A stretch of 64,000 nt of DNA from a virus. Taxonomy: Duplodnaviria > Caudoviricetes. The position numbers were made by a program, and so were the translations under genes. Below are positions 48,716 to 64,000 of this stretch, one piece after another. The notes under the pieces are model-generated. The model saw only the letters and a program-made list of their open reading frames with translations. It had not been told where the DNA came from and did no database searches. The stretch's first letter is position 1. Every line of letters starts with the position of its first letter. The stretch covers positions 1-64,000 of IMG/VR virus record IMGVR_UViG_3300046408_000009. One strand, given 5' to 3'.

Positions 48716-48738
48716 ACGTCTCCTTCGTCCGTTCCACC

Positions 48739-49315: not shown

Positions 49316-49492
49316 CTACAACTCTTGCATCCACTTTTGCAATTCTGTTTTCTCCGCTGAACTCCACATCACTACTCGGCGTCCGGACCACCAGCGATGG
49401 TTCTCGTGCTCACCGCTCAGGCGGCACCGAACTGCGGGACCGGGACCAGTGTTGACGTGTCGACAACGTTCTATTTCTCCCACGGACCCCAT
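49316..49492 (-). CDS. 58-aa Cys/His microprotein
   Basis: MGSVGEIERCRHVNTGPGPAVRCRLSGEHENHRWWSGRRVVMWSSAEKTELQKWMQEL, translated by hand. Confidence 0.6.
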   Translation of the reverse strand: MGSVGEIERCRHVNTGPGPAVRCRLSGEHENHRWWSGRRVVMWSSAEKTELQKWMQEL

Positions 49493-50086: not shown

Positions 50087-50349
50087 CGCGACTCTCTCAA
50101 TTCCTCAAGGATCGCACGACGCTCCTGTTCGATCTTGTTGAGATCGATACCAAAAAATTCCGCGAAGAGTTCTTCGATTCGGGCATGAATCGGCGTCAAT
50201 TTCGTGTCCTCGTACTCGTCGTACTTGACCCACTCCGCAATGACGAATTCCTTTTCGTCACGAAGCCAGTCAACAAAGCGAGTGAGGGTGTCAGCCTCAC
50301 CGCTCTCAATGACAGCGTGTTGTTTATCAAGTTCTGGTGTGTTGATCAC
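50083..50349 (-). CDS. Hypothetical phage protein
   Basis: FVDWL...IEELFAEFFGIDLNKIEQERRAILEELR. Confidence 0.75.
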   Translation of the reverse strand: MINTPELDKQHAVIESGEADTLTRFVDWLRDEKEFVIAEWVKYDEYEDTKLTPIHARIEELFAEFFGIDLNKIEQERRAILEELRESR

Positions 50350-50945
50350 TTAGCGTCAACCTTTCCGTTAGCCGTCCACGTAAAGGCGTTAAAGTCCGCC
50401 TTCTCTTGCTGAAGCACCGCACTGACGAGCCGGTTCGCTTCGCTCGTCGCTTCAATCGCGTTGGCGTAGTCGAGCAAAGCACCTTCGACATCAGAACTGA
50501 GTCGCAAATGGTGGACCCCGACCGCTTCACGAATCGCACCCCAGGGTTCGTTGCGTTCCCCGGCGAGACGTTGAATTGCTCGTCCCAGTGCGTTGTTGGC
50601 GGAATCCCGGTACGCGGTCCTACCCTCGGCGATGTTCGTGTTCAGCCACTCAACGACGGCTAACTGCGTAGCATCGTCACAAGCGCGGCGAGCGACCTGT
50701 GACAGTTCACTCACGCGACGTCCGTTCTCGTCCACCACGTGCGCGTCTTGCACATAATACCGCCAGTCACTCAATCCCTGAGAGTGCGTGTACCGGCTGA
50801 CCTTCTGACTGAACCGAATAGTCTCACCGCGCCAGGTTCCGGAGAAGTACAAATACACCTCTTCGGTATCAATGGCGAACTGTCGACCAAACTTGATGTG
50901 GTGAGAATTCGATCCCTCGAACTTGATGTCCTTGACCTGAGTCAT
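50346..50945 (-). CDS. Hypothetical protein
   Basis: 199 aa; overlaps neighbours. Confidence 0.75.
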   Translation of the reverse strand: MTQVKDIKFEGSNSHHIKFGRQFAIDTEEVYLYFSGTWRGETIRFSQKVSRYTHSQGLSDWRYYVQDAHVVDENGRRVSELSQVARRACDDATQLAVVEWLNTNIAEGRTAYRDSANNALGRAIQRLAGERNEPWGAIREAVGVHHLRLSSDVEGALLDYANAIEATSEANRLVSAVLQQEKADFNAFTWTANGKVDAK

Positions 50946-51067
50946 TGTCTATCTTCCTTTTCCTGGTTGTCGGTTTCCTGCTGCACATCTTCACTAACGG
51001 GGGGAAATGCTTCTAGCCACGCACACCCCTCGTGGTCCACTTGGTGCAACTCACACCACATAATCAT
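50942..51067 (-). CDS. 41-aa microprotein
   Basis: MIMWCELHQVDHEGCAWLEAFPPVSEDVQQETDNQEKEDRQ; GAAGGA RBS; ATGA overlap with the next gene. Confidence 0.55.
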   Translation of the reverse strand: MIMWCELHQVDHEGCAWLEAFPPVSEDVQQETDNQEKEDRQ

Positions 51068-51090
51068 TTTTGATTCCTTCCTTCGCAGAG

Positions 51091-51119
51091 ATCGTACCTG
51101 ACTTTTTGCAAATTTGCAA
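51091..51119 (-). promoter_or_regulatory. Promoter TTGCAA-17-TACGAT with tandem TTTGCAAA
   Basis: Exact spacing. Confidence 0.85.
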
Positions 51120-51120
51120 A

Positions 51121-51558
51121 TTAGTGCCCGTACAACTCCTCAGCGATCTTGTTGTATTCGCGAGTCTGAACCGAATCGTTGATGATCCAGTGAAGTCCCG
51201 CGTAGCACTTTCCCCCGCCGCCGTACGCACCGCGCAAATCACAGTCTTGCTCGCACTCCACGCACCACCCCGCTGTTCCGGCGCACACCTCACAAAAGTC
51301 GGTGACCTTGAGAGACTTGCACCACGCGAGATTGTCGCTGTTCGTGCATTGGTGATGACGCTCGCAGATTACGAGATACTTACCATCATCTCCGCCCTCG
51401 TCCCATACCGTCAAGCCACCCTTGGCGTAAAGCGCACCGTTAGCGTGGACCGTGCGCGTATGAAACGCGAGTCCAGTACGGAACCCGTTAGGGCGAACAA
51501 ACTTCGCACCACAGCCCTTCACGGGGCACTTGTAACCAGGGTACCTAGAAGCGACCAT
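51121..51558 (-). CDS. Cys/His-rich zinc-finger protein
   Basis: CPVKGC...FH...VH, CERH, CEVC, CVEC motifs. Confidence 0.7.
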   Translation of the reverse strand: MVASRYPGYKCPVKGCGAKFVRPNGFRTGLAFHTRTVHANGALYAKGGLTVWDEGGDDGKYLVICERHHQCTNSDNLAWCKSLKVTDFCEVCAGTAGWCVECEQDCDLRGAYGGGGKCYAGLHWIINDSVQTREYNKIAEELYGH

Positions 51559-51793
51559 CGCGCACACCCTCCTCGTACTCGACGTCCCACTTGTGGTCCT
51601 CGATGTCGCGCTTGATGCTCGCTTCGATGGCACCCCCACTGCGGGTCTCCCACTCGTGGGTCAGGCACTTGGCTTCCCAGCGATTGTGGATGAATCCGCG
51701 AGTCCGGGGAATCAACTCGTCCTTGCCAGTCTGCCAGTCACGGCACACCGCGAACCACTTGATCCGGCACTTGGAAACTTGGGTCTCTGTCAC
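51545..51793 (-). CDS. Hypothetical protein (leaderless, GTG start)
   Basis: GTG 7 nt after the TACACT box. Confidence 0.7.
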   Translation of the reverse strand: MTETQVSKCRIKWFAVCRDWQTGKDELIPRTRGFIHNRWEAKCLTHEWETRSGGAIEASIKRDIEDHKWDVEYEEGVRDGRF

Positions 51794-51800
51794 GTAAGTA

Positions 51801-51829
51801 AGTGTAGTCGAAAATTTGCAAATTTGCAA
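51801..51829 (-). promoter_or_regulatory. Promoter TTGCAA-17-TACACT with tandem TTTGCAAA
   Basis: Exact spacing. Confidence 0.85.
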
Positions 51830-51833
51830 ATTA

Positions 51834-52019
51834 CTAGGACAACACCGCCCTTTCGTTCACGTACTTTTCGATGGCGTCAGCGGCCACCCGGAGATCGCGA
51901 GCGACCGTCATCAGGTCGGTGCGATTCCACAGGTACTTCGGATTGAGACCCACGTTCTTCAACTCACGAGCGTTGTTGATTGCCTGTGAGAGACGTCCTC
52001 GTAATTCGGTCTTGGTCAT
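51834..52019 (-). CDS. Hypothetical protein
   Basis: TGATG overlap with the upstream gene; 61 aa. Confidence 0.65.
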   Translation of the reverse strand: MTKTELRGRLSQAINNARELKNVGLNPKYLWNRTDLMTVARDLRVAADAIEKYVNERAVLS

Positions 52020-52444
52020 CAGTCCATCCTCGATCCCGCGTGAGCATTGAGACCATTCTGACGCAGCACCTCCGCGAACGCGCCGCACGCGGCTTCCTTC
52101 AATTGCATCGACTGTCCGAATTCAGCGTCACGAGATTCAGAGACGCAGTCATTACCCCACAACTGCCAACCACCGCCGTACGCGCTAGAGCCGATGCCCC
52201 CGCGACCGTACTTGCCGGGTTGTTTCTTGAGCCACGCCACGAACGCACCGCGAGCGGGCTTGATGGTGACCCACGCGAACCCGCAGGGACCGCCAGAGCA
52301 GTACCATTGTTCACCGGTTGATTCGTCACGAACGACCATCGCACGCAAGCGCGACTTCTCGTCCTCGTACGCGGCCTGAGCCGCCTTCTGCGCCGCCTGG
52401 TAAACCTCAGCGGGGCTTAATTTCTTGGTTTGGGTGTCTGTCAT
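52019..52444 (-). CDS. Hypothetical phage protein (leaderless)
   Basis: GPCGFAWVTIKPARGAFVAWLKK...GGGWQLW...QSM.LKEAAC.AFAEVL conserved-looking pattern. Confidence 0.8.
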   Translation of the reverse strand: MTDTQTKKLSPAEVYQAAQKAAQAAYEDEKSRLRAMVVRDESTGEQWYCSGGPCGFAWVTIKPARGAFVAWLKKQPGKYGRGGIGSSAYGGGWQLWGNDCVSESRDAEFGQSMQLKEAACGAFAEVLRQNGLNAHAGSRMD

Positions 52445-52451
52445 ATGAATA

Positions 52452-52516
52452 ACTATAGTGCCAAATTTGCAAATTTGCAAAATATTTTTGCAAATTTGCA
52501 AAAAATAAACTACGAT
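52452..52516. promoter_or_regulatory. Back-to-back divergent promoters with four (T)TTGCAAA boxes
   Basis: Minus: TTGCAA(52480-52475)-17-TATAGT; plus: TTGCAA(52488-52493)-17-TACGAT; both give leaderless starts. Confidence 0.9.
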
Positions 52517-52522
52517 ATTTAT

Positions 52523-52843
52523 ATGACAGAAACCATCAATAACCAATCCATTCAAACCACTGAAAGGATCACTAGTTTCACCACGGTCAGCGGTTTGACC
52601 TTCAGCATTGAGGGGAAGAAATTCGTCACCCGTAAGCCCAAGGGTTTTCGTGTCGGCTTCAGCGAAGAATTAGCCTGCAGTCACCGCGACATCTCTACCT
52701 GTGACCAATGCGCGGGCACCTACGCCAACATCATCGAAGTCTACGGTACACACTACTGGGTCCGCGACTACAGCGAGTGGTTGGAGCAGGTCCGTGAGTT
52801 CGCCCTTCTCGACGCTGAGTACGCGAATGAGGAAACCAATTAA
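52523..52843 (+). CDS. Hypothetical protein (leaderless)
   Basis: ATG 6 nt after TACGAT; CSH...CDQC motif. Confidence 0.75.
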   Translation: MTETINNQSIQTTERITSFTTVSGLTFSIEGKKFVTRKPKGFRVGFSEELACSHRDISTCDQCAGTYANIIEVYGTHYWVRDYSEWLEQVREFALLDAEYANEETN

Positions 52844-52844
52844 T

Positions 52845-52872
52845 CTGCAAATTTGCAAAAATCTGCTACAAT
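52845..52872 (+). promoter_or_regulatory. Promoter CTGCAA-16-TACAAT with TTTGCAAA in the spacer
   Basis: Leaderless ATG at 52879. Confidence 0.75.
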
Positions 52873-52878
52873 ATCCGT

Positions 52879-53076
52879 ATGAGTGAAACCAGAGAAAGGG
52901 TCCCCGTGGCCAAGACAGTGAATCAACAGATTGCCGAATTCTTAGGTGTGACCGAAGAGGTTGGCGCACGAGTTCGTGACCAGATTGATGAGTTGGGGTT
53001 GCTCGACTGGAGCGAATGCACCGACCGAGAATTTAAGGCGGCGTGCCGTGAAGCATTAGCGGACATCGCCGGATGA
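52879..53076 (+). CDS. Hypothetical protein
   Basis: 65 aa, leaderless. Confidence 0.75.
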   Translation: MSETRERVPVAKTVNQQIAEFLGVTEEVGARVRDQIDELGLLDWSECTDREFKAACREALADIAG

Positions 53077-53267
53077 AATCACTCCCTCTGGATAGAGAAC
53101 GATGCCACTACGATGTGACGGGTTACCCCATTGACTTCGAGAACCGATGTATGCGACGTGCGCGTTGGGTACTTGAATCACCTACCCACGGCAAACATGA
53201 AAATTTTGCACGCAGCACGCCAATCATGGAACGTCATGGGTGGAAGAATCGAGTTGAATTCAAGTGA
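53073..53267 (+). CDS. Hypothetical protein
   Basis: ATGA overlaps on both sides. Confidence 0.6.
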   Translation: MKSLPLDRERCHYDVTGYPIDFENRCMRRARWVLESPTHGKHENFARSTPIMERHGWKNRVEFK

Positions 53268-53890
53268 TGAAAACACTCGAACTATTCTCCGGCACTGAAT
53301 CATTCTCCAACGCCGCCCGCGAGCGCGGACACCAAACATTCACATCGGACTTCGATCCACAATTCGATAGTGACTACACCGTCGACATCATGCAACTCGA
53401 TACCGCACGTCTCCCGTTCCGACCCGATGTGTTGTGGGCGAGTCCACCATGTGAGACATTCAGCGTTGCCAGCCTTGGTCGATATTGGTGGAAGGACGAA
53501 GATGGTCTCCACCCTAGGAATGACATCGCTCGCGCGGGTATCGCCCGCGTCGAGAGAACGTTAGAGATCATCGATGAGTTACAACCAAAAGTCTGGATTA
53601 TCGAGAACCCCCGTGGGGCACTGCGCAAGATGAAATTCATGCAGGACTTTGCACGATACACCGTGACCTATTGCCAATATGGTGACGTCCGGATGAAGCC
53701 CACGGACCTGTGGTCGAATGTTGATGATCTCGTATTCAAACCGATTTGCAAAAACGGGGCACCGTGTCATATCGCTGCACCTCGCGGAAGTCAGACTGGA
53801 ACGCAGGGACCTAAAAGTTACCTTGAGAAGTCTCGTGTCCCACATCAACTGTGTGTGTGTGTGGTCCAACAATTCGAGGAAAGGATGTGA
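53264..53890 (+). CDS. Short DNA (cytosine-5)-methyltransferase-like protein
   Basis: LELFSG (I), WASPPCETFS (IV), IIENP (VI), QYG..RMKPT (VIII). Confidence 0.85.
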   Translation: MMKTLELFSGTESFSNAARERGHQTFTSDFDPQFDSDYTVDIMQLDTARLPFRPDVLWASPPCETFSVASLGRYWWKDEDGLHPRNDIARAGIARVERTLEIIDELQPKVWIIENPRGALRKMKFMQDFARYTVTYCQYGDVRMKPTDLWSNVDDLVFKPICKNGAPCHIAAPRGSQTGTQGPKSYLEKSRVPHQLCVCVVQQFEERM

Positions 53891-54078
53891 TGGACGAGTT
53901 CACTGAACGCCACCTCGCCCGCTGGATCGACGCCAGCGTGTACGAGGATGATCGGGCGCAATTCCACGCGTACGCGACCCGATGCATTAACGACGATCCG
54001 ACGTACGACTGGAACTACCCCAGCCTGTACCGATCATTTCTACTTCAACAAAAAACCAACAAGAAAGAGACCACATGA
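53890..54078 (+). CDS. Hypothetical protein
   Basis: TGATG overlap; 62 aa. Confidence 0.65.
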   Translation: MDEFTERHLARWIDASVYEDDRAQFHAYATRCINDDPTYDWNYPSLYRSFLLQQKTNKKETT

Positions 54079-54488
54079 CTGAAAGAATTGCAACGTCCAC
54101 TCGACACCGTACGGCGAGAATCATCGCCGCCGCGATTGTGATTGGCATCTTCATCGCCATCGTTTCATCCGTGAGTTCTCACGGCGGTGGAGGCCCCTAC
54201 AGCGCCCAGGTGACGAGCGTGACGCCGCTGCAGGGTCCCGGTAACTACGTGCGCGTCGACTACACCGTGACCAACGCGGGGAGTGCGTCGGGGTCACCGT
54301 CGTGCCAGATCGACATCCAACTCAACGACGTGAACGGCAACCCCATGGCCAGTGGATCGGACGCGATGTCGGGGACCAACACCGTCCCGGCCCACGGCTC
54401 GCAGGCGTTCTACGCCGATATCGTGGTGACGAATAACGACGCGTTCTACGTGACTAACCCGTCGATGGTGACTATCAGCGGGTGCTGA
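54075..54488 (+). CDS. Membrane-anchored protein with extracytoplasmic Ig-like domain
   Basis: TM segment IIAAAIVIGIFIAIVSSV, then beta-rich YTVTNAG...VPAHGSQAFY. Confidence 0.8.
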   Translation: MTERIATSTRHRTARIIAAAIVIGIFIAIVSSVSSHGGGGPYSAQVTSVTPLQGPGNYVRVDYTVTNAGSASGSPSCQIDIQLNDVNGNPMASGSDAMSGTNTVPAHGSQAFYADIVVTNNDAFYVTNPSMVTISGC

Positions 54489-54495
54489 CGGCAAA

Positions 54496-54523
54496 GAACC
54501 CCTGACCGCTGAGTCAGGGGTTC
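54496..54523. terminator. Bidirectional terminator hairpin
   Basis: GAACCCCTGAC-CGCTGA-GTCAGGGGTTC, 11-bp perfect stem between convergent units. Confidence 0.85.
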
Positions 54524-54553
54524 TCCGCCAGCGTTTAGGCATCGCCACTCCAG

Positions 54554-54656
54554 AAGCCTTCAGCGATCAATTAGGAAGAACTGCAACACCATCCAAAGGC
54601 TGATCCCAGAGTGTTCCTACACCCGTCGCAGTTGTCAATTGATCGTTTTCCGGCTT
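54554..54656 (-). ncRNA. Putative structured small RNA of unknown class
   Basis: Own promoter TTGCAT-17-TATGAT (54691-54663) with predicted +1 at 54656; nested helices of 5, 9 and 9 bp capped by two hairpins; no plausible ORF; downstream terminator. Confidence 0.75.
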
Positions 54657-54719
54657 GCAGAAATCATAGTTGATGGTTACTGCAAATGCAAATCTAACTT
54701 ACGGGATCGTCGGGTGGGT

Positions 54720-54962
54720 TCATGATCGAAACTTGTGGTCGTAGACGTTGTTGGCTGTTCCGGGGGTGTGCCAGATACTCTCTCGTACGTCATCACACCC
54801 ACGGTATGTACATTTTGCGTCCGGGTCCTCAACGGCCAGCGGTGCATTGATAATTTGCAGAATAGCGTCACGTTCATTCGCCGTCAACACATTAGAAAAT
54901 TTCGAATTCTCGATCACTGCACGAATGGCGTCGAGTTTAGAAATTTGTTCGTTGTCGTTCAT
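54720..54962 (-). CDS. Hypothetical protein
   Basis: 80 aa; ATGA overlap. Confidence 0.7.
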   Translation of the reverse strand: MNDNEQISKLDAIRAVIENSKFSNVLTANERDAILQIINAPLAVEDPDAKCTYRGCDDVRESIWHTPGTANNVYDHKFRS

Positions 54963-55234
54963 AGTGGCTTACCGCACGCTGGGCAGAAATTATACCCGTC
55001 GCTCTTCCATATTTTGTGCGATGCACTGTTTTGGTACCAACACTTCAACAGATCACGAGTCATTACGACGTCCTCAATTCGTTGCATAAACATCTGCGCA
55101 TCGTCGGGTGTTGAAAATCCTCGAACCGTTAGGGTGACGTTTGCGCAAAATCCGTCGAGACGTTCATCAACCGCGTAGGGGACAATACTTTCGTCACGCG
55201 GGTTGGCGCGTCCGAATTCGTCCCATTCCATCAT
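54959..55234 (-). CDS. Hypothetical protein with C-terminal Zn ribbon
   Basis: KCW...YNFCPACGKPL. Confidence 0.75.
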   Translation of the reverse strand: MMEWDEFGRANPRDESIVPYAVDERLDGFCANVTLTVRGFSTPDDAQMFMQRIEDVVMTRDLLKCWYQNSASHKIWKSDGYNFCPACGKPL

Positions 55235-55875
55235 GGATTCGCTTTCTTAAACTGTTGCGCGAACTTCTGGCTACAGAGACTTCGAAGATCGGCGTCGGTG
55301 TGTACAGAATCTACAAACGGCGCGAACTCTTTTATGCGATGCACCATGCTTTTATGTTCAACGGACAGTGCCGGTTTTCTCCCCGGTCGCTTCCAGAACG
55401 AATCAATTTTGTTAGGAACTTCTTCAAAGGTTTTGTATAGTTTAGGTGGTGGATTAAACACTCCCCATAGTGCCGTCTTTTTAGTCCAGGGACTTCCGTA
55501 TTCATAGGGTTGATATGTCCAATCAGGCTTCCCTAGGAAATCACGCAGACGCCCCGTGGCCGGGTTTTCGATCACCCACCAGACGGGTGACGATGCGTCG
55601 ATAATTCGTAGACACTCATTGACCAATGCCATTCCATTTTCAGGACTACGCGCCTTCCCGCCTTGACGAGCGGTGGAAAACTCTGTACAGACCGGATTGG
55701 CAATAATTCCGTGAACCTCCTGAGGAGGGCAATAGTTTTCAACTCCTATATCTTTCCCGATGCGAATGACGTGATAATCAGGATCAACTTGGTAAGGCCA
55801 CGAATCGCTGCCCGTGTCCGCGCATAGATGAAGAATTGTTTTCAATTTCGTCTTTCGTCTTTCGTCTCTGGTCAT
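55231..55875 (-). CDS. Divergent DNA cytosine methyltransferase-like protein
   Basis: TILHLCADTGS (degenerate motif I), IANPVCTEFS (IV), WVIENP (VI), YGSPWTKKTALWG (VIII). Confidence 0.75.
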   Translation of the reverse strand: MTRDERRKTKLKTILHLCADTGSDSWPYQVDPDYHVIRIGKDIGVENYCPPQEVHGIIANPVCTEFSTARQGGKARSPENGMALVNECLRIIDASSPVWWVIENPATGRLRDFLGKPDWTYQPYEYGSPWTKKTALWGVFNPPPKLYKTFEEVPNKIDSFWKRPGRKPALSVEHKSMVHRIKEFAPFVDSVHTDADLRSLCSQKFAQQFKKANP

Positions 55876-56189
55876 GGCTTCAACGTCATCACGCAATTGA
55901 TCACGTCGCCCGTGATTTTCCGGTCCTCGTGTTCGATCTCCAACGCGATGCGTGGCAGAGAACCGACCACCAAATTGTCGGCTCGCCCGCGCAACAGACT
56001 GTACGAAACATTCTCCTCGCGCACAAGTTCGATCTTCACTCGCGGCCAAACGCCGCGCCGTACCTTGTCCGCGAGTTCTCGCAGAGTGACGATTGCGCTA
56101 TCCACATCACTGTCGTTCCCCGTGAGGGGACGGGGTCCGAGTTCAGAGATGGCTAAGTAGATGTCGGTAAGGATTTCGTCTTTCGTCAT
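55872..56189 (-). CDS. Hypothetical protein (leaderless)
   Basis: ATG 6 nt after TACACT (56201-56196); TTGCAA and CTGCAAA boxes upstream. Confidence 0.75.
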   Translation of the reverse strand: MTKDEILTDIYLAISELGPRPLTGNDSDVDSAIVTLRELADKVRRGVWPRVKIELVREENVSYSLLRGRADNLVVGSLPRIALEIEHEDRKITGDVINCVMTLKP

Positions 56190-56228
56190 GGTTCGAGTGT
56201 AGCAGGTTTTTGCAGATTGCAAATACAA

Positions 56229-56273
56229 AACCCTCACCAACTTTTGAGCCAGAGGCTCAGGTCGATGAGGGTT
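56229..56273 (-). terminator. Intrinsic terminator after the HNH gene
   Basis: 13-bp outer stem AACCCTCATCGAC/GTTGGTGAGGGTT with inner TGAGCC/GGCTCA, followed by TTGTATTT. Confidence 0.7.
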
Positions 56274-56309
56274 CTGCCTTATCAGCGTAGCACCTGGGAA
56301 CTTTCGCAT

Positions 56310-56630
56310 TTACGGACGCGGTTTACGGACCCGAATCTTCTCGCCGTTACGCGGAGTGGGGACGGAATGTCCCAGCGCGATGGCCTCGATGCGCCGCGCG
56401 AGCCACGTCGAATTCTGCGCCCACTCGCGAGCGTTCTGGTGGCCCTTGCGTGAGTTGCAGGGGTAGCACGCCGCCACGAGATTATGCAGCGCCTGCGTGC
56501 CGCCGTGCTTGACCGCGAGCACGTGATCAACGGTGGACGTCTCGCGCGTGATCGATACGCCGCACCAGTAGCAGCGCCCACCGCTGAGTTGAAATATTTG
56601 CAACTTGCGAGACCGCTTCACGTAGGACAT
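56310..56630 (-). CDS. HNH endonuclease
   Basis: GRCYWCG...TVDHVL...GG...NLVAACYPCNSRKG. Confidence 0.9.
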   Translation of the reverse strand: MSYVKRSRKLQIFQLSGGRCYWCGVSITRETSTVDHVLAVKHGGTQALHNLVAACYPCNSRKGHQNAREWAQNSTWLARRIEAIALGHSVPTPRNGEKIRVRKPRP

Positions 56631-56709
56631 CGATTGAGCATATCCGGGGAGGTCCGCAGTCCCCACCGCCCATCCCCGTGAAGTGGGGACCGCAGACGCG
56701 CAGAGTGTA

Positions 56710-57954
56710 TCAGTGTTGGGGGTCCGCCGCTTGTGCAATCCGACCTTCGATAATTGGGTAGTAGTCCTCAGTGATCTCACAGCCCACCCACTCGAATCCT
56801 TCGAGGATCGCTGCCGCCGCCGTCGTGCCGGAACCCAAGAATGGATCGAGCACTTTGCCACCCGGTGGCGTCACGAGGTTGATGAGGTAGCGCATTAGTG
56901 CGAGCGGCTTGACGGTGGGGTGGTGGTTCTTGTCCTCGACTCCAGCACTTCGTTCGGACTTGCTGGCTTTAGCGCAATAGAAGAATCGAGCAGCGGAACC
57001 ATCGTCGTTGTACTCAGTACCCGTTGCTGTCATCCCCCAGCCTTTTCCATTTGCACCACTGCGCGGTTTACCTTTACGTGACGGTTTTACTGATGGGAAT
57101 GCGTTGAGCACTTCGTCGCTACCGTCGTGGATGATGTTGGCGGGCCATCGGCCCTCCGGCAGTTCATAGCGGGTGGCAGCGCCCTTACTGTAAACTCCGT
57201 TTGCGCCAATGGTTCCAACGGTGTGTGGGTTCTTTGCATAAATCGAATCATCCTTGGATTCAATCAGTACGCGTGAGGCGTCAATGTTCAGTGCCCCCGT
57301 ACCATACTCCAAAACGTTCTTCACCACCGTCCCGACGAGGGGCTTCCGAGCGACGACGATTGGTTCGTGAGCGGGCTTGAGCGCCGTACCCCAGCCTTGC
57401 CATTTTTGTGCGTCGGGTGTCGATTCGCCCTTGCGAGTGAGTTGGTTGTTTGTGTTGTTGTACCCTCCGGCACCATCTGGGTTCATGAACCCAACACCGC
57501 TCGCAGGTTTCGATGTGAACTCAACACCAGCCGACTTGTCGATGGCCTTGGATACGTCCATAGACTTCGGGAACCCCGAGCCATACAGCCACATGATCTG
57601 ATCGCGTATCTCAAACCCCGCATCCTCGATTGAACTGGCGATTCGGTGATAGGTTCGCGATCCACCAAACGCGAGCAAGTGACCACCCGGCTTCAAGACG
57701 CGCAGGGCTTCGACCCAGAGAGCGACATTATAGGCGATTCCCGAATTGTCCCAGGATTTTCCCATAAAGCCGAGTTCGTAGGGTGGATCGGTGACGATGG
57801 AATCGACACTGTTAGCGTCGAGCGTCTTTAGTAGAACGAGGCAGTCACCCCGGAGTAGTCCTACTTGCAAATGTTGGTCCGGCGGTCCCACCCAAAAATC
57901 ATCTTCGTCGTACTCGTCAACATCGATCAAAACTGCGGGTTCGTCGTTCGTCAT
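56710..57954 (-). CDS. DNA N6-adenine/N4-cytosine methyltransferase (beta class)
   Basis: VTDPPY catalytic motif before the VLDPFLGSGTT SAM-binding motif; LKPAHEPI, HPTVKP. Confidence 0.95.
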   Translation of the reverse strand: MTNDEPAVLIDVDEYDEDDFWVGPPDQHLQVGLLRGDCLVLLKTLDANSVDSIVTDPPYELGFMGKSWDNSGIAYNVALWVEALRVLKPGGHLLAFGGSRTYHRIASSIEDAGFEIRDQIMWLYGSGFPKSMDVSKAIDKSAGVEFTSKPASGVGFMNPDGAGGYNNTNNQLTRKGESTPDAQKWQGWGTALKPAHEPIVVARKPLVGTVVKNVLEYGTGALNIDASRVLIESKDDSIYAKNPHTVGTIGANGVYSKGAATRYELPEGRWPANIIHDGSDEVLNAFPSVKPSRKGKPRSGANGKGWGMTATGTEYNDDGSAARFFYCAKASKSERSAGVEDKNHHPTVKPLALMRYLINLVTPPGGKVLDPFLGSGTTAAAAILEGFEWVGCEITEDYYPIIEGRIAQAADPQH

Positions 57955-58001
57955 TGAGATGAGAGTGTATCAGATCATTTGCAAATCAGTGCGTGCAAAA
58001 A

Positions 58002-58187
58002 CTACTGCATACTCTGGTGGGATTCAATCTCTCTGGTAGCCCTCACGTACGCCGCACATCCTCGCGGATTTGCAAGAATCTTTTCTCTTAATTGCTGCGC
58101 AGTGATCTGCGCCCGAGCGTATTCATCAAGTGTTGGTTCACTCTCGCTCACCTGTCGTGAGTCGACCGGAATGTCACATGGTGCCAT
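58002..58187 (-). CDS. Small hypothetical protein
   Basis: 61 aa; ATG 7 nt after TACGAT. Confidence 0.55.
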   Translation of the reverse strand: MAPCDIPVDSRQVSESEPTLDEYARAQITAQQLREKILANPRGCAAYVRATREIESHQSMQ

Positions 58188-58200
58188 GTCGGTGATCGTA

Positions 58201-58308
58201 GCAGATTGACCGGGTGGGATTCGAACCCACGTGACCCTCGCCGTCGCTCGGACCATCACCTACGTTGGGTGTCCCTTTTTGACCAGACTCCGGGCACCGA
58301 CAACCTGC
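58201..58308 (-). ncRNA. tRNA-like RNA with extended acceptor stem and non-canonical anticodon loop
   Basis: T-arm GTGGG-TTCGAAT-CCCAC; D-arm-like CCC..TGGTC..GGG; 12-bp bulged terminal stem; long variable region; no CCA. Confidence 0.65.
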
Positions 58309-58338
58309 GTGCAGGAAACCTCCTGCAGAAAAAGTGTA

Positions 58339-58575
58339 TCAGTGCCGCGCTTCACCAAACCACTGCACCATGATGTGGTCCGCGAGCATTTGTTTGTGCG
58401 CCTTGATAGCGCGGGAACGTTTAATGGGGTGCCACCTCGACGGCAAGTTGGGAACCACGGGCCAGATTTGCATTAGGAACTGATCTTGCAGATATTGCTC
58501 AACGTTGATCATGCCGTAGTGCGCTTCGATGGTGGCGCGTTGGTTGGGGTGCACGATGATGCGGTCAGGTTCCAT
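58339..58575 (-). CDS. Hypothetical protein
   Basis: Start MEPDRII overlaps the upstream stop. Confidence 0.6.
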   Translation of the reverse strand: MEPDRIIVHPNQRATIEAHYGMINVEQYLQDQFLMQIWPVVPNLPSRWHPIKRSRAIKAHKQMLADHIMVQWFGEARH

Positions 58576-58828
58576 TGGCAATCTTTGTTCGTAGGTATTC
58601 AATTTCAATCTGGCCGGGGCTGCGGTGGCAGTAACACGAGAAGGGTCCCTCGTCGTCGGGATCGTCATTCTCTTCGCGTTCACGTTGGCCATTGCACTCG
58701 CCATCGCCCTCGTAGCCCCATTCGTGTTCTGCAAATGTGTGTCCGCACGGTTCAGGGTAAGCACCGGGCCAGACGTGCACGAACGCCAACAATTCTGGTT
58801 CCGGGTCGGGGAATGGTTCAGCCGCCAT
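58565..58828 (-). CDS. Hypothetical protein (Cys/His)
   Basis: 87 aa; PCGH..AEH...C...CYC. Confidence 0.65.
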   Translation of the reverse strand: MAAEPFPDPEPELLAFVHVWPGAYPEPCGHTFAEHEWGYEGDGECNGQREREENDDPDDEGPFSCYCHRSPGQIEIEYLRTKIANGT

Positions 58829-59088
58829 CAGTTCTCTCCTCCAAACCCAGCGATGATGTGTGTCTCTCCCTCTGGGGCCGCCAACATCGCGATGAGGTCA
58901 CGCGATAGTTCCGGGAATTCCTCGGAACAGACTCCGGCATACGTCGCTAACGCCTGACGAGCAAAAGGGTCATGGGTCACGTCAAGGACGAAATACCAGC
59001 ACCCGTCGTGTTTGGTGCCCGGTCCTTCATTGCCGTCCTTTCGCGAGACGTTGAACTTACCGCCTTGGTGCAATCCATCAGTTTTCAT
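58828..59088 (-). CDS. Conserved small phage protein
   Basis: KFNVSRKDG...GTKH..CWYFVLD..HDPFARQAL..YA pattern. Confidence 0.8.
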   Translation of the reverse strand: MKTDGLHQGGKFNVSRKDGNEGPGTKHDGCWYFVLDVTHDPFARQALATYAGVCSEEFPELSRDLIAMLAAPEGETHIIAGFGGEN

Positions 59089-59242
59089 TTTGTCCTCCCT
59101 CTGGGGCCGGGGTGAACCTCACGCAGGCACACCCCCCTACTCGACCGTCAATAACGACAGTGGCGTTGCAATCGTTCCTCTTGTGGAGATGTCCGCGATG
59201 ACCGCAATAACATATCTGCGCTCGTTTCGATGGTCGCATCAT
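59078..59242 (-). CDS. 54-aa CxCxH-type Zn-binding microprotein
   Basis: MMRPSKRAQICYCGHRGHLHKRNDCNATVVIDGRVGGCACVRFTPAPEGGQNEN; overlaps genes on both sides. Confidence 0.7.
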   Translation of the reverse strand: MMRPSKRAQICYCGHRGHLHKRNDCNATVVIDGRVGGCACVRFTPAPEGGQNEN

Positions 59243-59877
59243 TCAGCCCCCTCTGGGGCCGGGGCAATCAGAGAGCGCAGGTAGTCGAAGTCACCGGGGG
59301 CGAACTTAGTCTCGAATATGGCTGGCCCAGCCGACCAAAAACCATGTGTCTCAAACGAGTTTTCCCCTATCAATTTCAGCACCCGCTCGGCTCGTTCGGC
59401 ACTCTCTTCGGCGGCGGCGAGCGCACAGCACATCGATGAGCAATCACCCGTGCAGTCGTCGTGATTACCCGCTAAGCAAGGTTCACACGGCTTGTACGCC
59501 TTCAGCGCGTCTCTCTCGGCCTCTACTGAGGCGAGGCGGGCAAGTTCGTCAGCCGCTTCCCATGCATCCATATAGTCGGGCAAGGCCACGCTCGTGATGC
59601 CATCCGATGCCCTAAAGGGGCCGGTGTCGCGAAGCCGCTCAATCAAGGGGCGACCAAGGCGTACTGACTCCAAACGCGCCTTGAGTTCTTCGTGTCGGGT
59701 TTCATCGCGTTCGGTGGTGAGAATCATCGTCTCGTTTGGTTCCGTCCCGAAAGTGTGATCGGCACCAACGTGATTCTTGAGAGGTTGCCCGCAAGTAGCA
59801 ATTTCTTGATAAGTGCACAGTGCGGGCTTGTCGAGTCCGAGTTCCGCGAGTTCATCGCCGGTTAGGTGTTCAGTCAT
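59239..59877 (-). CDS. Hypothetical mosaic phage protein
   Basis: 212 aa with Cys clusters and a coiled coil (EAADELARL...AERDAL). Confidence 0.75.
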   Translation of the reverse strand: MTEHLTGDELAELGLDKPALCTYQEIATCGQPLKNHVGADHTFGTEPNETMILTTERDETRHEELKARLESVRLGRPLIERLRDTGPFRASDGITSVALPDYMDAWEAADELARLASVEAERDALKAYKPCEPCLAGNHDDCTGDCSSMCCALAAAEESAERAERVLKLIGENSFETHGFWSAGPAIFETKFAPGDFDYLRSLIAPAPEGAE

Positions 59878-59904
59878 TCGTTCTCCGTCTTTCGTCGTGA
59901 GGGG

Positions 59905-59933
59905 AGCCTACCAGTCGAAAACGAAATTTGCAA
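59905..59933 (-). promoter_or_regulatory. Promoter TTGCAA-17-TAGGCT
   Basis: Exact spacing; followed by the GACGAAAGACG motif and an RBS. Confidence 0.75.
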
Positions 59934-60092
59934 AAAGAAAGGGGGAAAAGTACGTCGAAAAATTTTGGGGAGGGGCCGCGAGACACCGGGGTGGTGGGAT
60001 AAAAATTTGAGACTTCTTGCACGTGGGTGCACTAAAACTCATTGTTGTCTTTGGCAGTGCAGGTGGTGTGGTGGGTGGCAGAGGGTGCCGGG

Positions 60093-60299
60093 TCAAGGGG
60101 TGGTGGTCGGTGTGAGGAGTTCGATGGTGCGATCCGCTTCACCACTACCATCCTCACCCTCGAACCTCATGCTGACCTGTGACTGGTCGTTGAACACCAC
60201 CACCACATCGTGACCTAGGACGTGCCTGATCTTGTCGACTCGAACGATGTCAGCGCGGTTCTGCAAACAAACCATCCGCAGGGTCAGAAACGTCATCAT
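60093..60299 (-). CDS. Small hypothetical protein
   Basis: 68 aa; CTGCAAATTGCAAA box upstream. Confidence 0.55.
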   Translation of the reverse strand: MMTFLTLRMVCLQNRADIVRVDKIRHVLGHDVVVVFNDQSQVSMRFEGEDGSGEADRTIELLTPTTTP

Positions 60300-60386
60300 G
60301 GTGTCTCGATTCGTCAGTGTCTTTTGCAATTTGCAGAATTAATCAAGGAGTGGTATTTTACCTCAGCCTGAAAAAGCATGCCTTGC

Positions 60387-60515
60387 CTAGTGATGGCGAT
60401 CTCGTGGCTTCACGGGCCATACGGCCAGCACCGCGCTCACCAGCAGCGCGATCACCAGGCACACGAAGGGTCCAATCACGAGCACGGCCAGCAATAACCA
60501 CATCCACCAGGGCAT
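60387..60515 (-). CDS. 42-aa membrane peptide
   Basis: MPWWMWLLLAVLVIGPFVCLVIALLVSAVLAVWPVKPRDRHH, translated by hand. Confidence 0.7.
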   Translation of the reverse strand: MPWWMWLLLAVLVIGPFVCLVIALLVSAVLAVWPVKPRDRHH

Positions 60516-60519
60516 GGTC

Positions 60520-61345
60520 GCCACCCTACAGCACAGCGCGTTGTCTACTTTCGAAAATCGGCGTTATCACCATCGAACGATTTTCGTTTTCCCTGATGAG
60601 AGGCTATGAAAACACGCATAAATCCTCATTTTCTATCAGCCCATAATATACGTTATGTAAAGTTGATGTGGAAAAAGCCAAGTTGATGAGGTTTTATGCA
60701 GAAAGTTTTTGCAGAAAAGGCTTGCCCCCCACTGATCCCAGCGACTAGGTTGTTGGTGGCGGAGAAATCGATCTGCAGGTCGAAATCCCATCACTGTGAA
60801 ACCAGTTCTGCGCGAGCAGGAAACTTCCGATCTTGCCCAGCGGTGGGTTGTCGTAGGTGGTTATACCATCGAGGCACCATCGACTGGGCATTTTCGTTTT
60901 TCGGGTCGACTCGAAAATTGCAAATCTCAGAACCGAAAATTGCAGAATTTCGGCTAAACGAAAAATTCGGTACGCGGGTGGCATGGTTGGATGGGCGGAT
61001 GGTCTCAGGGGGCTTCCTCAAAACACTTCTATTTTAAACGAATTTCCCCCTCATCAGGGATTACAGACAGTTTCCGGGGTTTGCTCCTATTGTTACTCCT
61101 AGTTTGCATTTCGTGCATGCCTACTCCCTATACCCCTTACTCACTCTCACGTTTAGTATTTAGCCTTAAATACTGTCCTAACTGTCTAAGTGTCATATAA
61201 TACCTGATAAGGAGCAACCCAACCGACTCCAAAATCGTCTACAAACTGTATTCGACTGTCCTACCCTTTTCGGTTGGTTCGCCCCCAAAAAGCGAAAATC
61301 CCGTCCGCTGACAGATGCGAACGGGACCTTCACTAACGAATCATG
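60520..61345. other. Long AT-richer non-coding region, putative replication origin / recombination region
   Basis: No credible ORF; direct repeats CGAAAATTGCA (60912, 60934), inverted repeat TCCCTGATGAG (60590/61050), AT-rich hairpin 61155-61174, strand-skewed tract. Confidence 0.5.
60636..60663 (+). other. dif: dif-like XerC/XerD recombination site
   Basis: TCAGCCCATAA-TATACG-TTATGTAAAGT in the 11-6-11 layout; right arm 1 nt from B. subtilis dif (TTATGTAAACT) and 2 nt from E. coli dif (TTATGTTAAAT). Confidence 0.75.
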
Positions 61346-61351
61346 TAGGGT

Positions 61352-61744
61352 TCAAACAGTCTCCTCTCCACTCGACGGTCGATCAATGAGCGTCAGGTAG
61401 TGAATCGAGACGTATTTTCGTTGCGTCGGTCCACGACGTAAGAACGCTTCTTCGCCGTTCAGCCCCGCCACGGTCCACCCGTTTCCAGCAGTCGTATGGT
61501 GCACGACGTCCCCGATTTTCGGGTAATACGTCACGGGGAAATTCGGCCTCTTCCCACCGGTTGCCACGCGTTGCACCGCTGGTGTCTCTTCCGAATACCC
61601 GTTGATCACTATCTCAATGGCGACGTCCATCGTGCCCGCCGAGACATCACGCGGCAGTCGGTCTCGACGCGCCCTCAGTGCCGTCACGAGCCGTTCGAGC
61701 GCGTCAGACGATACACCGGCCCAGTTGGTGTCATTGGTGCTCAT
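61352..61744 (-). CDS. Hypothetical protein with C-terminal SH3/KOW-like motif
   Basis: PKIGDVVHHTTAGNGWTV. Confidence 0.7.
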   Translation of the reverse strand: MSTNDTNWAGVSSDALERLVTALRARRDRLPRDVSAGTMDVAIEIVINGYSEETPAVQRVATGGKRPNFPVTYYPKIGDVVHHTTAGNGWTVAGLNGEEAFLRRGPTQRKYVSIHYLTLIDRPSSGEETV

Positions 61745-62043
61745 TGGAACCCTCCGCTCCATGTTTTACGTTTGGCGACTCGACGTTCTTGTGATCCGGC
61801 GTGACGTACGCAAAACGGTCCGAGCCACGATCCATCCACGTCAAGGACTGAGACGTGTCCGTGCAGGGTGCAGCCCTTGAACCACACGCAGGGTTCGAGT
61901 TCTCGCTGTTGCGCGAGCGCGTGCGTCTTGCAGAAGTACCCCACCGGCACGATCCGATTCGAGTCGATCACGACCCAATTCCCTTCCCGGCCACAGCCGT
62001 TTTGCACACAGGTCACCCGTGCGATCTCGCGAATTGTGATCAT
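61741..62043 (-). CDS. Cys/His-rich protein with internal duplication
   Basis: Two similar units: C..NGC...GYFCKTHA and C..KGC...GPFCVRHA. Confidence 0.7.
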   Translation of the reverse strand: MITIREIARVTCVQNGCGREGNWVVIDSNRIVPVGYFCKTHALAQQRELEPCVWFKGCTLHGHVSVLDVDGSWLGPFCVRHAGSQERRVAKRKTWSGGFQ

Positions 62044-62303
62044 TTCCGGCTCCCAAAAAACACGTTCGCAACCCGCAGGTACATATCCACCAGCGACCAG
62101 AAATCGGGACCAGCCTGCATCGCGAGTGGCGAATTATGGCACGAGTTCTTTACCCGATCAATAGCCTCTGCGTCGAGCACCAGATCACACTCGCGCAGTC
62201 CAGAGTGCACGTGATAGCGCACCCCGCGACCGCCGCCAGTCCGATATTCGAGGGGCTTGGCACAATTCGGGCACAGCATTGTCTGGCGTCCATAACTGCT
62301 CAC
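62040..62303 (-). CDS. Zn-ribbon protein
   Basis: CPNC...H.H...C; GTGA overlap with the upstream stop. Confidence 0.65.
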   Translation of the reverse strand: MSSYGRQTMLCPNCAKPLEYRTGGGRGVRYHVHSGLRECDLVLDAEAIDRVKNSCHNSPLAMQAGPDFWSLVDMYLRVANVFFGSRK

Positions 62304-62503
62304 GACGCCTCCTCTAGAAGGTGTAAACGCAGATAGTGTTCGCGGCGGTTGTGCCGCTCCCAATCCTTGCGAGCGAGTTCGTGCACGACCTCTCGAACGC
62401 CGACGTGCACGATCCCGCGATGCGCTGGCGTGTGCCAGTCACACGAGAACCGCGCTCGCGCACGGGGTGCGCTGGGACGCGGCGTACGGGTGTTCTTTCC
62501 CAC
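62300..62503 (-). CDS. Hypothetical protein
   Basis: AAAGGAG RBS and GTG start. Confidence 0.7.
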   Translation of the reverse strand: MGKNTRTPRPSAPRARARFSCDWHTPAHRGIVHVGVREVVHELARKDWERHNRREHYLRLHLLEEAS

Positions 62504-62531
62504 GGGATGGCTCCTTTAGTAGTGCGTACGT

Positions 62532-62560
62532 ATCTTATTGCAAAAACTGTTAATTTGCAA
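62532..62560 (-). promoter_or_regulatory. Promoter TTGCAA-17-TAAGAT with a second TTTGCAA in the spacer
   Basis: Exact spacing. Confidence 0.8.
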
Positions 62561-62630
62561 ATATCAGCACGATCACCGCGACCACGATGAGCGACAGTGC
62601 GAACAGTCCGTGCTTCTGTTCCCAGGTCAT
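62550..62630 (-). CDS. 26-aa membrane peptide
   Basis: MTWEQKHGLFALSLIVVAVIVLIFAN; ATGA overlap with the upstream stop. Confidence 0.6.
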   Translation of the reverse strand: MTWEQKHGLFALSLIVVAVIVLIFAN

Positions 62631-62782
62631 GTCAACCGAAACTGACTCAGCGGCACGTCCGGAGTATCCTCACCGCAGTAACCACAGTGGTGCCCACCCT
62701 GGTGCGTGCGGCCCGGTCGAGCACACTGGTGCGGTGCTTCGCACACCTCGCAGTACCCCCACTCTGTTTTGCATTCGCTCAT
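62627..62782 (-). CDS. 51-aa Cys/His microprotein
   Basis: MSECKTEWGYCEVCEAPHQCARPGRTHQGGHHCGYCGEDTPDVPLSQFRLT; ATGA overlaps on both sides. Confidence 0.65.
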   Translation of the reverse strand: MSECKTEWGYCEVCEAPHQCARPGRTHQGGHHCGYCGEDTPDVPLSQFRLT

Positions 62783-62943
62783 GGGAACCCGATTTCTTCC
62801 GCACTGACGTAGATGGTTTGACCGACTCCGGCGTAGGCCTTGATCATCGCGAGCGTGAGCGGATCATTGTCACTACCCAGTAAATCGAAGTCATCGATCT
62901 CGACGTTTTGAATTGTGCAGACTTGGTATATATGTTTAGCCAT
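62779..62943 (-). CDS. Small hypothetical protein
   Basis: 54 aa starting MAKHIYQV. Confidence 0.6.
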   Translation of the reverse strand: MAKHIYQVCTIQNVEIDDFDLLGSDNDPLTLAMIKAYAGVGQTIYVSAEEIGFP

Positions 62944-63146
62944 CACTTCTCCTCTATCGCGCAGATAATTGCTGCGACCAAACACAGACAGAAGGCGAGA
63001 AAACACGACGTCGCGAACGTGGCGTGGTATGCAACATCCTCGTGGTTCCACAGTTTGTGCGTCTCAATGCACGCGACCGTGGCCCAGAATTCGACCACCA
63101 TCACAGCAGCAGCGATAGTTGCGAAAACTAAAAATAAGCCCATCAT
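62943..63146 (-). CDS. Small two-TM membrane protein
   Basis: Two hydrophobic segments. Confidence 0.7.
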   Translation of the reverse strand: MMGLFLVFATIAAAVMVVEFWATVACIETHKLWNHEDVAYHATFATSCFLAFCLCLVAAIICAIEEK

Positions 63147-63334
63147 GACCAGTCCTCTTCACGCCACTGGGACTCTGGCAGCCCCAACTTTTTAGCGACT
63201 CTCTTCGCTCGACGCAACTCCGCGAGCCACTTGCGTCTCGTCCACCAACCACCTTCGAGGTGTGACTGCAGGTAGGAGTCGATGGCTATAGCAACCATGA
63301 CCCTCTCGTCTTGGCGCAATGGGGATTTGTTCAC
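63143..63334 (-). CDS. Hypothetical protein
   Basis: 63 aa; overlaps neighbours. Confidence 0.65.
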   Translation of the reverse strand: MNKSPLRQDERVMVAIAIDSYLQSHLEGGWWTRRKWLAELRRAKRVAKKLGLPESQWREEDWS

Positions 63335-63840
63335 GACAAATCTCCGGTCAGCAGGTCATTCAGGTAGTGGAGATCATCAACGGAAATAACGATCTCGTGT
63401 TGGAGAGTGATCTTCTTGAATGATTTCAGCAACTTCAACAGTCGTTCTGCACGCTCGATCCTCTGGCCCTGGGTATTCTTAATGTCGTCAATCACGGCGT
63501 CAATCAGTTCGATCTCTTGGCGTAATTGCTTGACCTCAGCCAACAGCGCCGGGACTCGCTCATCCACGCGTCCCGTGCCGTCACAGAACTCACAACCGAT
63601 CATCTCGTGCGAACCCATGTACTCGACACCGGACGGTTCCGATCCCGAACCGTGACAATTGGGGCAGTCGGTCATGTACTCGCTCGAGGAAGAATCAGCG
63701 ATGTGCATGCGCAGCACCTTGAGTCCGTCATCTCGATTAACCCACTCGCCCACGGTGATTGACGCGCCGTGTTCGTTCTCAACTTCTACGAACGGCAATG
63801 CACTGCCGGGTCCTCCCCCGAATACGATGTCAATTTGCAC
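63331..63840 (-). CDS. Hypothetical protein with DnaJ-type CxxCxGxG Zn finger and coiled coil
   Basis: CPNCHGSG...CEFCDGTG; GAAGGAG RBS with GTG start. Confidence 0.75.
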   Translation of the reverse strand: MQIDIVFGGGPGSALPFVEVENEHGASITVGEWVNRDDGLKVLRMHIADSSSSEYMTDCPNCHGSGSEPSGVEYMGSHEMIGCEFCDGTGRVDERVPALLAEVKQLRQEIELIDAVIDDIKNTQGQRIERAERLLKLLKSFKKITLQHEIVISVDDLHYLNDLLTGDLS

Positions 63841-64000
63841 CGTTGTTCTCCTTCATTTGTGTCGGACTACCATTCGCATATTTTGCAAAAATGGTTCTCA
63901 GTGATGAAAAGCAGAATGGCTAGTGTCATCGTTGAGCCGCCTTCCAACCCAGCGTCCACGCCTGCTGCGCCACACTGACGCACGCTTGGAACTGCGCGGG

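Follow-up and report, generated by a model that had tools for sequence, protein, structure and literature searches.

The phage genome examined here is complete (direct terminal repeats), siphovirus-like, and 75,046 bp long with 54% G+C, and nearly all of its genes are encoded on the minus strand. Positions 1 to 64,000 of its IMG/VR record (IMGVR_UViG_3300046408_000009) constitute the window, that is, the whole stretch of DNA covered by the sequence-only reading. The portal protein is approximately 40% identical to the portals of Corynebacterium, Gordonia, and Rhodococcus phages, and the host is likely an actinobacterium. Three soil metagenome runs, each belonging to a different study, contain the phage at 100% identity, and one of them is probably its source. 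No variant letters were seen, with positions 58176-58343 uncovered in the two other runs; no RNA dataset was listed among the runs containing the phage.

The gene caller of the source leaves a gap of 385 nt between a 78-aa ORF and the gene for a 414-aa DNA methyltransferase. The first part of this gap is occupied by the RNA element (58201-58338, minus strand) and the rest by an ORF of 61 aa, and the element is co-oriented with its neighbors. The features of the locus are as follows, in the order of transcription.

58333-58341, minus strand: promoter-like extended -10 box (TGATACACT), identified from the sequence
58311-58326, minus strand: 5′ hairpin (stem of 6 bp, loop of 4 nt), present in the minimum-energy fold as well as in the centroid fold
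58297-58308, minus strand: 5′ strand of a 12-bp terminal helix, pairing with 58201-58213 with one bulged U
58273-58296, minus strand: U8-G9, class II D stem of 3 bp, and D loop of 16 nt with G18-G19, of the Ser type
58257-58271, minus strand: anticodon-like hairpin of 4 bp with the 7-nt loop CAACGUA (loop, 58261-58267)
58232-58255, minus strand: long variable arm, 24 nt in length, made up of 6 bp, a tandem G-A/A-G, a further 2 bp, and a loop of 4 nt, from the ARAGORN structure
58214-58230, minus strand: perfect T arm of 5 bp with the canonical 7-nt T loop, identified from the sequence
58201-58213, minus strand: 3′ strand of the terminal helix with the bulged U at 58209, from the sequence and the folds
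58002-58187, minus strand: downstream small gene of 61 aa with its ATG at 58187, 13 nt past the end of the helix

When the sequence was read directly, every motif that a sequence-only reading had assigned to this part of the minus strand was found in place, and the element can be folded as a class II cloverleaf with a long paired variable arm. The 5′ hairpin starts at the predicted first transcribed base, 7 nt after the box, and the cloverleaf begins two bases past the hairpin. The 5′ strand of the terminal helix consists of five leader bases (58304-58308) followed by the 7-base acceptor strand (58297-58303); the acceptor stem contains U1-A72, U2-A71, and the bulged U, lacks G73, and is extended to 12 bp by five leader-trailer pairs, and no CCA was found after its 3′ strand at the 58201 end. 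The bases that form the tRNA elbow (U8, the equivalents of A14 and G15, G18-G19, C48, and the canonical T loop) are all present. The anticodon-like hairpin is flanked by an A-A mismatch, and its loop carries ACG in the anticodon position, A33, and U37. The paired 24-nt variable arm lies inside a variable region of 26 nt (58231-58256) and is common to the cloverleaf proposed in the sequence-only reading and to the ARAGORN fold, and its inner pairs are kept in a shifted register in the minimum-energy fold.

The proposed cloverleaf has a calculated energy of -49.3 kcal/mol, compared with -51.3 kcal/mol for the unconstrained minimum, which retains the 5′ hairpin, the long helix, and the T arm, and with -33.0 kcal/mol for the ARAGORN fold, which is thus 16 kcal/mol worse than the proposed cloverleaf. 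In 200,000 trials with random flank pairs from the same genome, at least 12 stacked pairs (one bulge allowed) were obtained in 0.017% (approximately 1.7 × 10^-4) and at least 7 stacked pairs in 0.9%, and the terminal 12-bp helix is regarded as a real feature on account of this rarity. The fold energy of the element is no better than that of shuffled sequence (z = -0.9); unremarkable fold z-scores are common for tRNAs and say little. A larger structured RNA extending across the 385-nt gap was unsupported (fold z = -0.2).

The TGA within the box at 58333-58341 is also the stop codon of the upstream 78-aa ORF. Exact copies of the box number three, all on the minus strand, and in the 75-kb genome the degenerate pattern TGnTAYAnT is found at eight minus-strand sites and one plus-strand site, with approximately 2.3 occurrences expected per strand. 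At five of these nine sites an ATG follows at a distance of 6-9 nt, which is the arrangement expected of leaderless or near-leaderless genes. From the copy in front of the element, a transcript start near 58326 is predicted; this copy has a weak -35 region. The earlier proposal of a TACACT box placing +1 at 58326, on the hairpin, stands as to the positions of box and hairpin, but the box was not called as a promoter in a generic sigma-70 scan.

A search of a 1.84-billion-protein library with the downstream small gene gave 11 matches (E = 2.5 × 10^-7 to 1 × 10^-3). In nine of them the alignment begins at residues 27-30 of an 85-aa reading, directly past the ATG, and ends at residues 80-83, and the two weakest cover other short stretches of that reading. 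Because most matches align from just after the ATG, the 61-aa ORF is considered to be real, and the codon score was best in its frame. The ORF is a member of a small unnamed domain family (identities of 40-54%), and in five of the 11 matches this domain makes up the N-terminal part of a protein in which it is fused to an Xre-type HTH domain. A GTG-start ORF at 58259 exists as had been described. Its part overlapping the RNA is not conserved, relatives aligning only from just after the ATG at 58187, so that the translated and conserved GTG-start ORF that would speak against an RNA gene was not found. The terminator scan detected no terminator between the RNA and the 61-aa gene, which is likely the next cistron on the transcript of the element.

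The upstream 78-aa ORF had no homologue among 5.8 billion proteins, and no informative Pfam or PHROG family was obtained for the neighboring ORFs except for methyltransferases and an HNH endonuclease. The ORF of the latter (56310-56861, minus strand; PHROG matches down to 9 × 10^-20) overlaps the 3′ end of the 414-aa methyltransferase gene and was not called by the source. The best homologues of the methyltransferase (67-68% identity) are located in unrelated contexts without the RNA. In two phage contigs of approximately 66-74 kb (L011 and L012, at approximately 9026-12610), which carry the closest homologues among long contigs (68%), the methyltransferase gene separates the two parts of a split terminase gene, which encode its N-terminal and C-terminal halves, an arrangement that suggests a mobile methyltransferase cassette. 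Neither a CCA-adding enzyme nor an RNA ligase was found in a search of the phage genome.

With ARAGORN, one tRNA-like gene was called in the whole 75,046-bp genome, namely a tRNA-Arg(ACG) of 91 nt at 58206-58296. The fold on which this call is based has a different 7-bp acceptor stem with one mismatch, A8, and a D stem of 2 bp, and its gene ends (58296 and 58206), on which ARAGORN and Infernal agree, differ from the placement in the sequence-only reading. The Rfam tRNA model (RF00005) gave a full-length match at 58206-58296 with 16.6 bits, below the gathering threshold of 29 (E = 0.04 for the genome), and no Rfam model reached its threshold in the window. Since the ARAGORN fold is weak and the Rfam score is sub-threshold, there is no confident standard tRNA call, as had been anticipated from the sequence, and the element is probably not a working tRNA: the T arm, D arm, and elbow bases of a tRNA are present, and the U33 and purine-37 of a decoding anticodon loop are absent. 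An intron-containing tRNA was considered and rejected, the intron mode of ARAGORN having given only an implausible call.

The special families fared no better. The tRNA-Sec model (RF01852) matched only the T arm (11.3 bits versus 47), as did the YrlA model (RF02553; 10.3 bits versus a threshold of 69), neither score being near its threshold. A tmRNA was rejected: its model matched an 18-nt stretch of the T arm alone (16.2 bits versus a threshold of 47), no tmRNA was found with ARAGORN at default settings in the window or the whole genome, and the family needs tRNA-Ala-like ends and a tag reading frame.

For the comparison with cellular tRNAs, a covariance model (R1) was built from the element alone with the structure first proposed. 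In five actinobacterial genomes, six of its seven matches were tRNA-Ser genes, and the seventh was no tRNA by ARAGORN. In a sample of 151 Actinomycetota genomes, 87 genomes were matched, and the best 12 loci (38-44 bits) were all tRNA-Ser genes; this tally takes in three genomes marked unpublished (G028, G092, and G098), on which no sequence or claim rests. Over the T arm and its flanks, 22 of 22 consecutive bases are identical to the tRNA-Ser(GCU) of an Actinomycetota genome (L170), and the D loop has the very same 8-nt core as actinobacterial tRNA-Ser(GGA) genes in two others (L173 and L175). On the basis of the R1 matches and of these two identities the scaffold is of the Ser type. Of the Ser/Leu-type D region noted earlier, the Ser half is thus upheld and the Leu half dropped; the scaffold is not of the Tyr type either. 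From its sequence, the body of the element appears to be that of an actinobacterial tRNA-Ser, which it resembles (class II tRNA, RF00005) in U8-G9, the 3-bp D stem, the D-loop core, A26, the long paired variable arm, and C48, in addition to the identical T arm and flanks.

The differences from actinobacterial tRNA-Ser are located mainly at the two working ends. The anticodon stem has 4 bp, the loop has A33 and U37, and a Ser anticodon (NGA or GCU) is missing, with ACG in its place. The loop differs from every Ser loop at 4-5 of its 7 positions, and its stem is still paired. The bacterial seryl-tRNA synthetase recognizes G73 together with G1-C72 and G2-C71. All 12 aligned actinobacterial tRNA-Ser genes start with GG (G-C, G-C) and have G73, whereas the element starts with two U-A pairs, and the base after its acceptor stem is U or A depending on the register and never G73; the bulged U and the five extra pairs are further differences of the acceptor. 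Smaller differences are a D loop 3 nt longer and a longer variable arm. Judged from these sequence features, the element seems to derive from tRNA-Ser and yet falls outside that family by its anticodon, its acceptor identity, and its model score.

The occurrence of the loop CAACGUA elsewhere was examined with a scan whose pattern combined one stem pair, the 7-nt loop, a further two stem bases, and, at a distance of 8-38 nt downstream, a T loop. The three matches in IMG/VR were all due to chance, with no tRNA among them, and none of the 35 matches in GTDB species genomes was a tRNA. In JGI metagenomes, 65 matches were obtained; none was a relative of the element, and one had the loop in the anticodon position of a tRNA. 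This single case, a class I tRNA-Arg(ACG) at 212-285 (minus strand) of a bacterial-looking 1.4-kb metagenome contig (L099, JACCDZ011979343.1), carries exactly the loop of the element, scores 49 bits on the Rfam tRNA model, and is otherwise canonical; the loop is accordingly not unique to the phage. Compared with the usual Arg loop, the bases flanking the anticodon are swapped (U33 and A37 to A33 and U37). The observation that U33 and purine-37 are lacking was borne out, and a loop of this sequence is essentially absent from the cellular tRNA genes sampled. The tRNA gene of the metagenome contig has a mismatched 27-43 pair and a terminator of its own. A rhodanese-like gene is located downstream of this tRNA gene, and a short tRNA-like sequence, ending in CCA and seemingly without a T arm, closely precedes it.

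Relatives of the phage identified by the portal span 64-88% identity, and the contigs of those at 73-88% end 3-9 kb upstream of the portal, short of the region of the element. The one complete relative in IMG/VR (G001; 75,028 bp, 67% portal identity) gave no tRNA match even at E ≤ 10, and no homology to 48.5-68.9 kb was detectable in it. This stretch (48500-64000 in the window and on to 68900 of the genome), approximately 20 kb in length, contains mostly ORFan small genes, and the structural and replication genes are collinear with those of the relative. Sequence comparison thus points to a hypervariable accessory region. The best homologue of the methyltransferase (67%) is on a contig from the same JGI sample as a relative with 81% portal identity; the contig carries the operator motif of the phage and probably comes from that relative. 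A non-coding stretch of 750 nt is located upstream of its methyltransferase gene and contains no tRNA-like RNA. Because the element is missing both from the complete relative and from this contig, it is considered dispensable for this phage group, and the sequences compared indicate a lineage-specific item of a fast-changing accessory region.

Searches for homologues of the element detected none. In IMG/VR, no real match was obtained to the exact 25-mer of T arm plus acceptor, to the D-loop-to-T-loop pattern, or to the Ser-type D-loop/T-arm pattern. BLAST against GenBank phages returned T-arm matches only for the whole element and five short matches (E = 2-8) for its 5′ two-thirds, one of them on a tRNA-Leu of a haloarchaeal virus, and model R1 found nothing in approximately 790 kb of related loci. 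An attP core of a tRNA-integrating phage was rejected as an explanation: the phage has direct terminal repeats and no tyrosine integrase, and the element has a whole tRNA shape rather than a 3′ half.

The element may be a non-decoding mimic of tRNA-Ser that engages a host tRNA-binding factor, and this is the reading tentatively favored here from the sequence. It is favored because every helix and every elbow base has been preserved, whereas both working ends have been remodeled, which agrees with the earlier view that the D/T elbow is kept and the decoding features are not; the elbow and variable arm are intact, and the anticodon loop and acceptor end abnormal. Compared with tRNA-Ser, the acceptor is changed almost throughout and is still paired and prolonged, an outcome that is hard to reach by neutral decay and fits selection for shape. 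That the element is an expressed gene is made plausible by its position in an intergenic gap, by its co-orientation, and by a box that elsewhere in the phage precedes leaderless genes. The reading is weakened by the fact that a single sequence offers no covariation and no proof of selection, by the lack of homologues in the searches described, by the dispensability of the element in relatives, and by a fold energy no better than that of shuffled sequence, and the argument from altered ends and a kept body is biased, since the intact body is the reason why such an element is noticed. Family searches of the neighboring genes revealed no partner protein encoded nearby.

A possible course of events for such a mimic is as follows. 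Transcription would start from the box at 58333-58341, include the 5′ hairpin, yield the element as the first part of the transcript, and continue into the 61-aa gene and the methyltransferase gene. Pairing of leader with trailer is expected to impede RNase P and RNase Z, and the prolonged helix would hinder trimming by both enzymes as well as CCA addition. The untrimmed RNA could then persist as a closed tRNA-shaped module presenting its elbow and variable arm. The elbow together with a long variable arm is the surface gripped by seryl-tRNA synthetase, and the tRNA elbow is also read by RNase P and other tRNA-handling proteins. Given the surface presented, the likely role of the module would be to occupy or divert a host or host-defense factor recognizing tRNA-Ser-shaped RNA, and not to read codons. 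A more specific form of this proposal is considered decidedly doubtful. In it, a closed-ended tRNA-Ser mimic with an inert loop and a sealed acceptor would retain just the surface recognized by SerRS and by tRNA-Ser-directed toxins of Actinobacteria and, during infection, would sequester or competitively inhibit such a host factor in trans. The occurrence of the loop in a metagenomic tRNA-Arg that is unrelated would, in that case, point to a broader use of the loop, nuclease-proof or as bait.

Serine tRNAs are reported targets of several mycobacterial toxins, and phage tRNA genes are now regarded as weapons against host tRNA-cutting enzymes. If the mimic is real, bait instead of replacement would represent a tactic different from that of the documented working phage tRNAs with small loop changes. 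The whole case depends on a single sequence, that of an uncultured soil phage, and its practical value is that of a lead.

Among the alternatives, a decaying class II tRNA gene survives best, although it is somewhat unlikely: a gene from a phage or host, most like tRNA-Ser, would have been acquired in the accessory region and be drifting, and its RNA would be inert. Such a history would account for the presence of the element in this phage only and its absence from both the 67% relative and the methyltransferase contig of a closer one, for its location in a 20-kb non-homologous stretch beside a mobile-looking methyltransferase gene and an HNH endonuclease gene, and for the sub-threshold tRNA score and the unremarkable fold z-score. 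Neutral drift, however, should hit stems like loops, and 32 pairs stand with a single bulge. The acceptor, unlike that of tRNA-Ser nearly everywhere, not only still pairs but has gained five further pairs, the loop has departed from all Ser loops above a stem that has stayed paired, and compact phage genomes tend to lose dead DNA fast.

An unlikely alternative is that the element acts in cis as a tRNA-shaped leader of the downstream mRNA (61-aa gene, methyltransferase, and HNH endonuclease), either by directing RNase P and RNase Z to a cut that would set a new 5′ end or as a structured 5′ cap. Bacteria and phages are known to have tRNA-mRNA co-transcripts as well as tRNA-like cutting signals, no terminator precedes the 61-aa gene, whose start is 13 nt past the helix, and where five of the nine box copies have an ATG 6-9 nt on, a structure of approximately 140 nt follows the box here. 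A function tied to the downstream gene is nevertheless difficult to reconcile with the relatives of the 61-aa gene in two other contigs, alongside which no tRNA-like RNA was found. Moreover, a plain hairpin is enough for protection against 5′-end-dependent RNases, and the leader-trailer pairing would disfavor the very cuts that a processing signal requires.

It is still less probable that the element is an eccentric decoder, that is, a tRNA of approximately 90 nt with a CCA added by the host, charged with Arg (by C35-G36) or with Ser or Leu (by its body), reading CGU-type codons and perhaps resistant to nucleases. The ARAGORN call itself is in its favor, as is the otherwise canonical tRNA-Arg(ACG) of the metagenome contig, which has the same loop at 49 bits. 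CGU, CGC, and CGA, the set that would be read if A34 were deaminated, make up 79% of the Arg codons in 22 long genes of the phage. On the other side, A33 and U37 violate two nearly universal rules for anticodon loops, the 4-bp stem is flanked by a mismatch, the acceptor has either a bulge or a mismatch, and the Rfam score is below threshold; no Arg tRNA is known to be of class II, and insertion of Ser at Arg codons would harm the proteins of the phage itself. Nuclease-evading phage tRNAs with anticodon-loop changes, a precedent for the supposed resistance, have been described (PMC10264068). A chance resemblance, or a signal at the DNA level such as a protein-bound inverted repeat, would fit a single copy with no conservation and a fold z near zero, but it is highly improbable in view of a perfect T arm, a D arm of the Ser type, a paired variable arm, and a closing helix of 12 bp, which are jointly very unlikely to occur in the right order in an intergenic gap.

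The element belongs among the non-canonical phage tRNA-like genes. Toxins that cut tRNAs are abundant in actinobacterial hosts. Nuclease escape has been proposed or shown for phage tRNAs of cluster C1 mycobacteriophages and T5 whose anticodon loops carry substitutions (PMC10264068, PMC11464382, PMC11555353). The element is likewise a phage-encoded, tRNA-shaped RNA, and its anticodon loop is aberrant, but those tRNAs, apart from their loop substitutions relative to the host isoacceptor, are canonical, chargeable, and decoding, whereas the element fails the tRNA model and combines a remodeled acceptor with a Ser body and a non-Ser triplet.

In allo-tRNAs, the acceptor/T branch is arranged 8/4 or 9/3 and a tetraloop caps the long D stem; some of the allo-tRNAs and irregular tRNAs from soil show no activity in translation, and a regulatory function was suggested for them (Mukai et al., PMC5389517). 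These tRNAs are similar to the element in their soil origin and in the combination of a Ser-type long variable arm with a non-Ser anticodon, and differ from it in that its T stem has 5 bp and its D arm is an ordinary class II arm with a large loop. Assignment to tRNA-Sec or allo-tRNA, for which a 13- or 12-bp acceptor/T branch (8/5, 9/4, 8/4, or 9/3) is the test (PMC5389517), was rejected; against the 6-bp D stem and tetraloop of those families, the element has a 3-bp D stem, a 16-nt D loop, and a 5-bp T stem.

The suggestion of a Y-RNA-like element was not sustained, as the YrlA score rests on the T arm only and a TROVE search of the phage (E ≤ 1) found no Ro60/TROVE gene. The likeness to YrlA and other Y RNAs (RF02553) would be a tRNA-like elbow put to a non-decoding use; the free ends of YrlA are at the anticodon side, whereas those of the element close the acceptor side.

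A case from other actinophages is the 84-nt tRNA-Arg(CCU) of Kostyavirus (cluster E mycobacteriophages). In Mycobacterium phage Contagion (L006, 7976-8059), this gene has C33, U37, and a 4-bp anticodon stem with wobble pairs in the ARAGORN fold. Like the element, it is an actinophage tRNA-Arg by ARAGORN with a 4-bp anticodon stem and no U33; it differs in having no sequence similarity to the element, a class I D arm, and a normal tRNA-Gly as its neighbor. The tRNA-Arg(CCU) may also be a non-canonical tRNA-like gene, and its lack of U33 in the ARAGORN fold indicates that odd Arg calls made by ARAGORN only recur in actinophages. Since ARAGORN labels such genes tRNA-Arg, they enter annotations as ordinary tRNAs, for which the element serves as a warning. 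A separate irregular gene was observed in an array of 32 tRNAs on a 79.6-kb contig (L061, Ga0307477_10000217), where approximately 105 nt at 6521-6626 contain two anticodon-like hairpins (CCU and UCU) together with a normal acceptor, D arm, and T arm, and are called by ARAGORN as an 83-nt tRNA-Arg(UCU).
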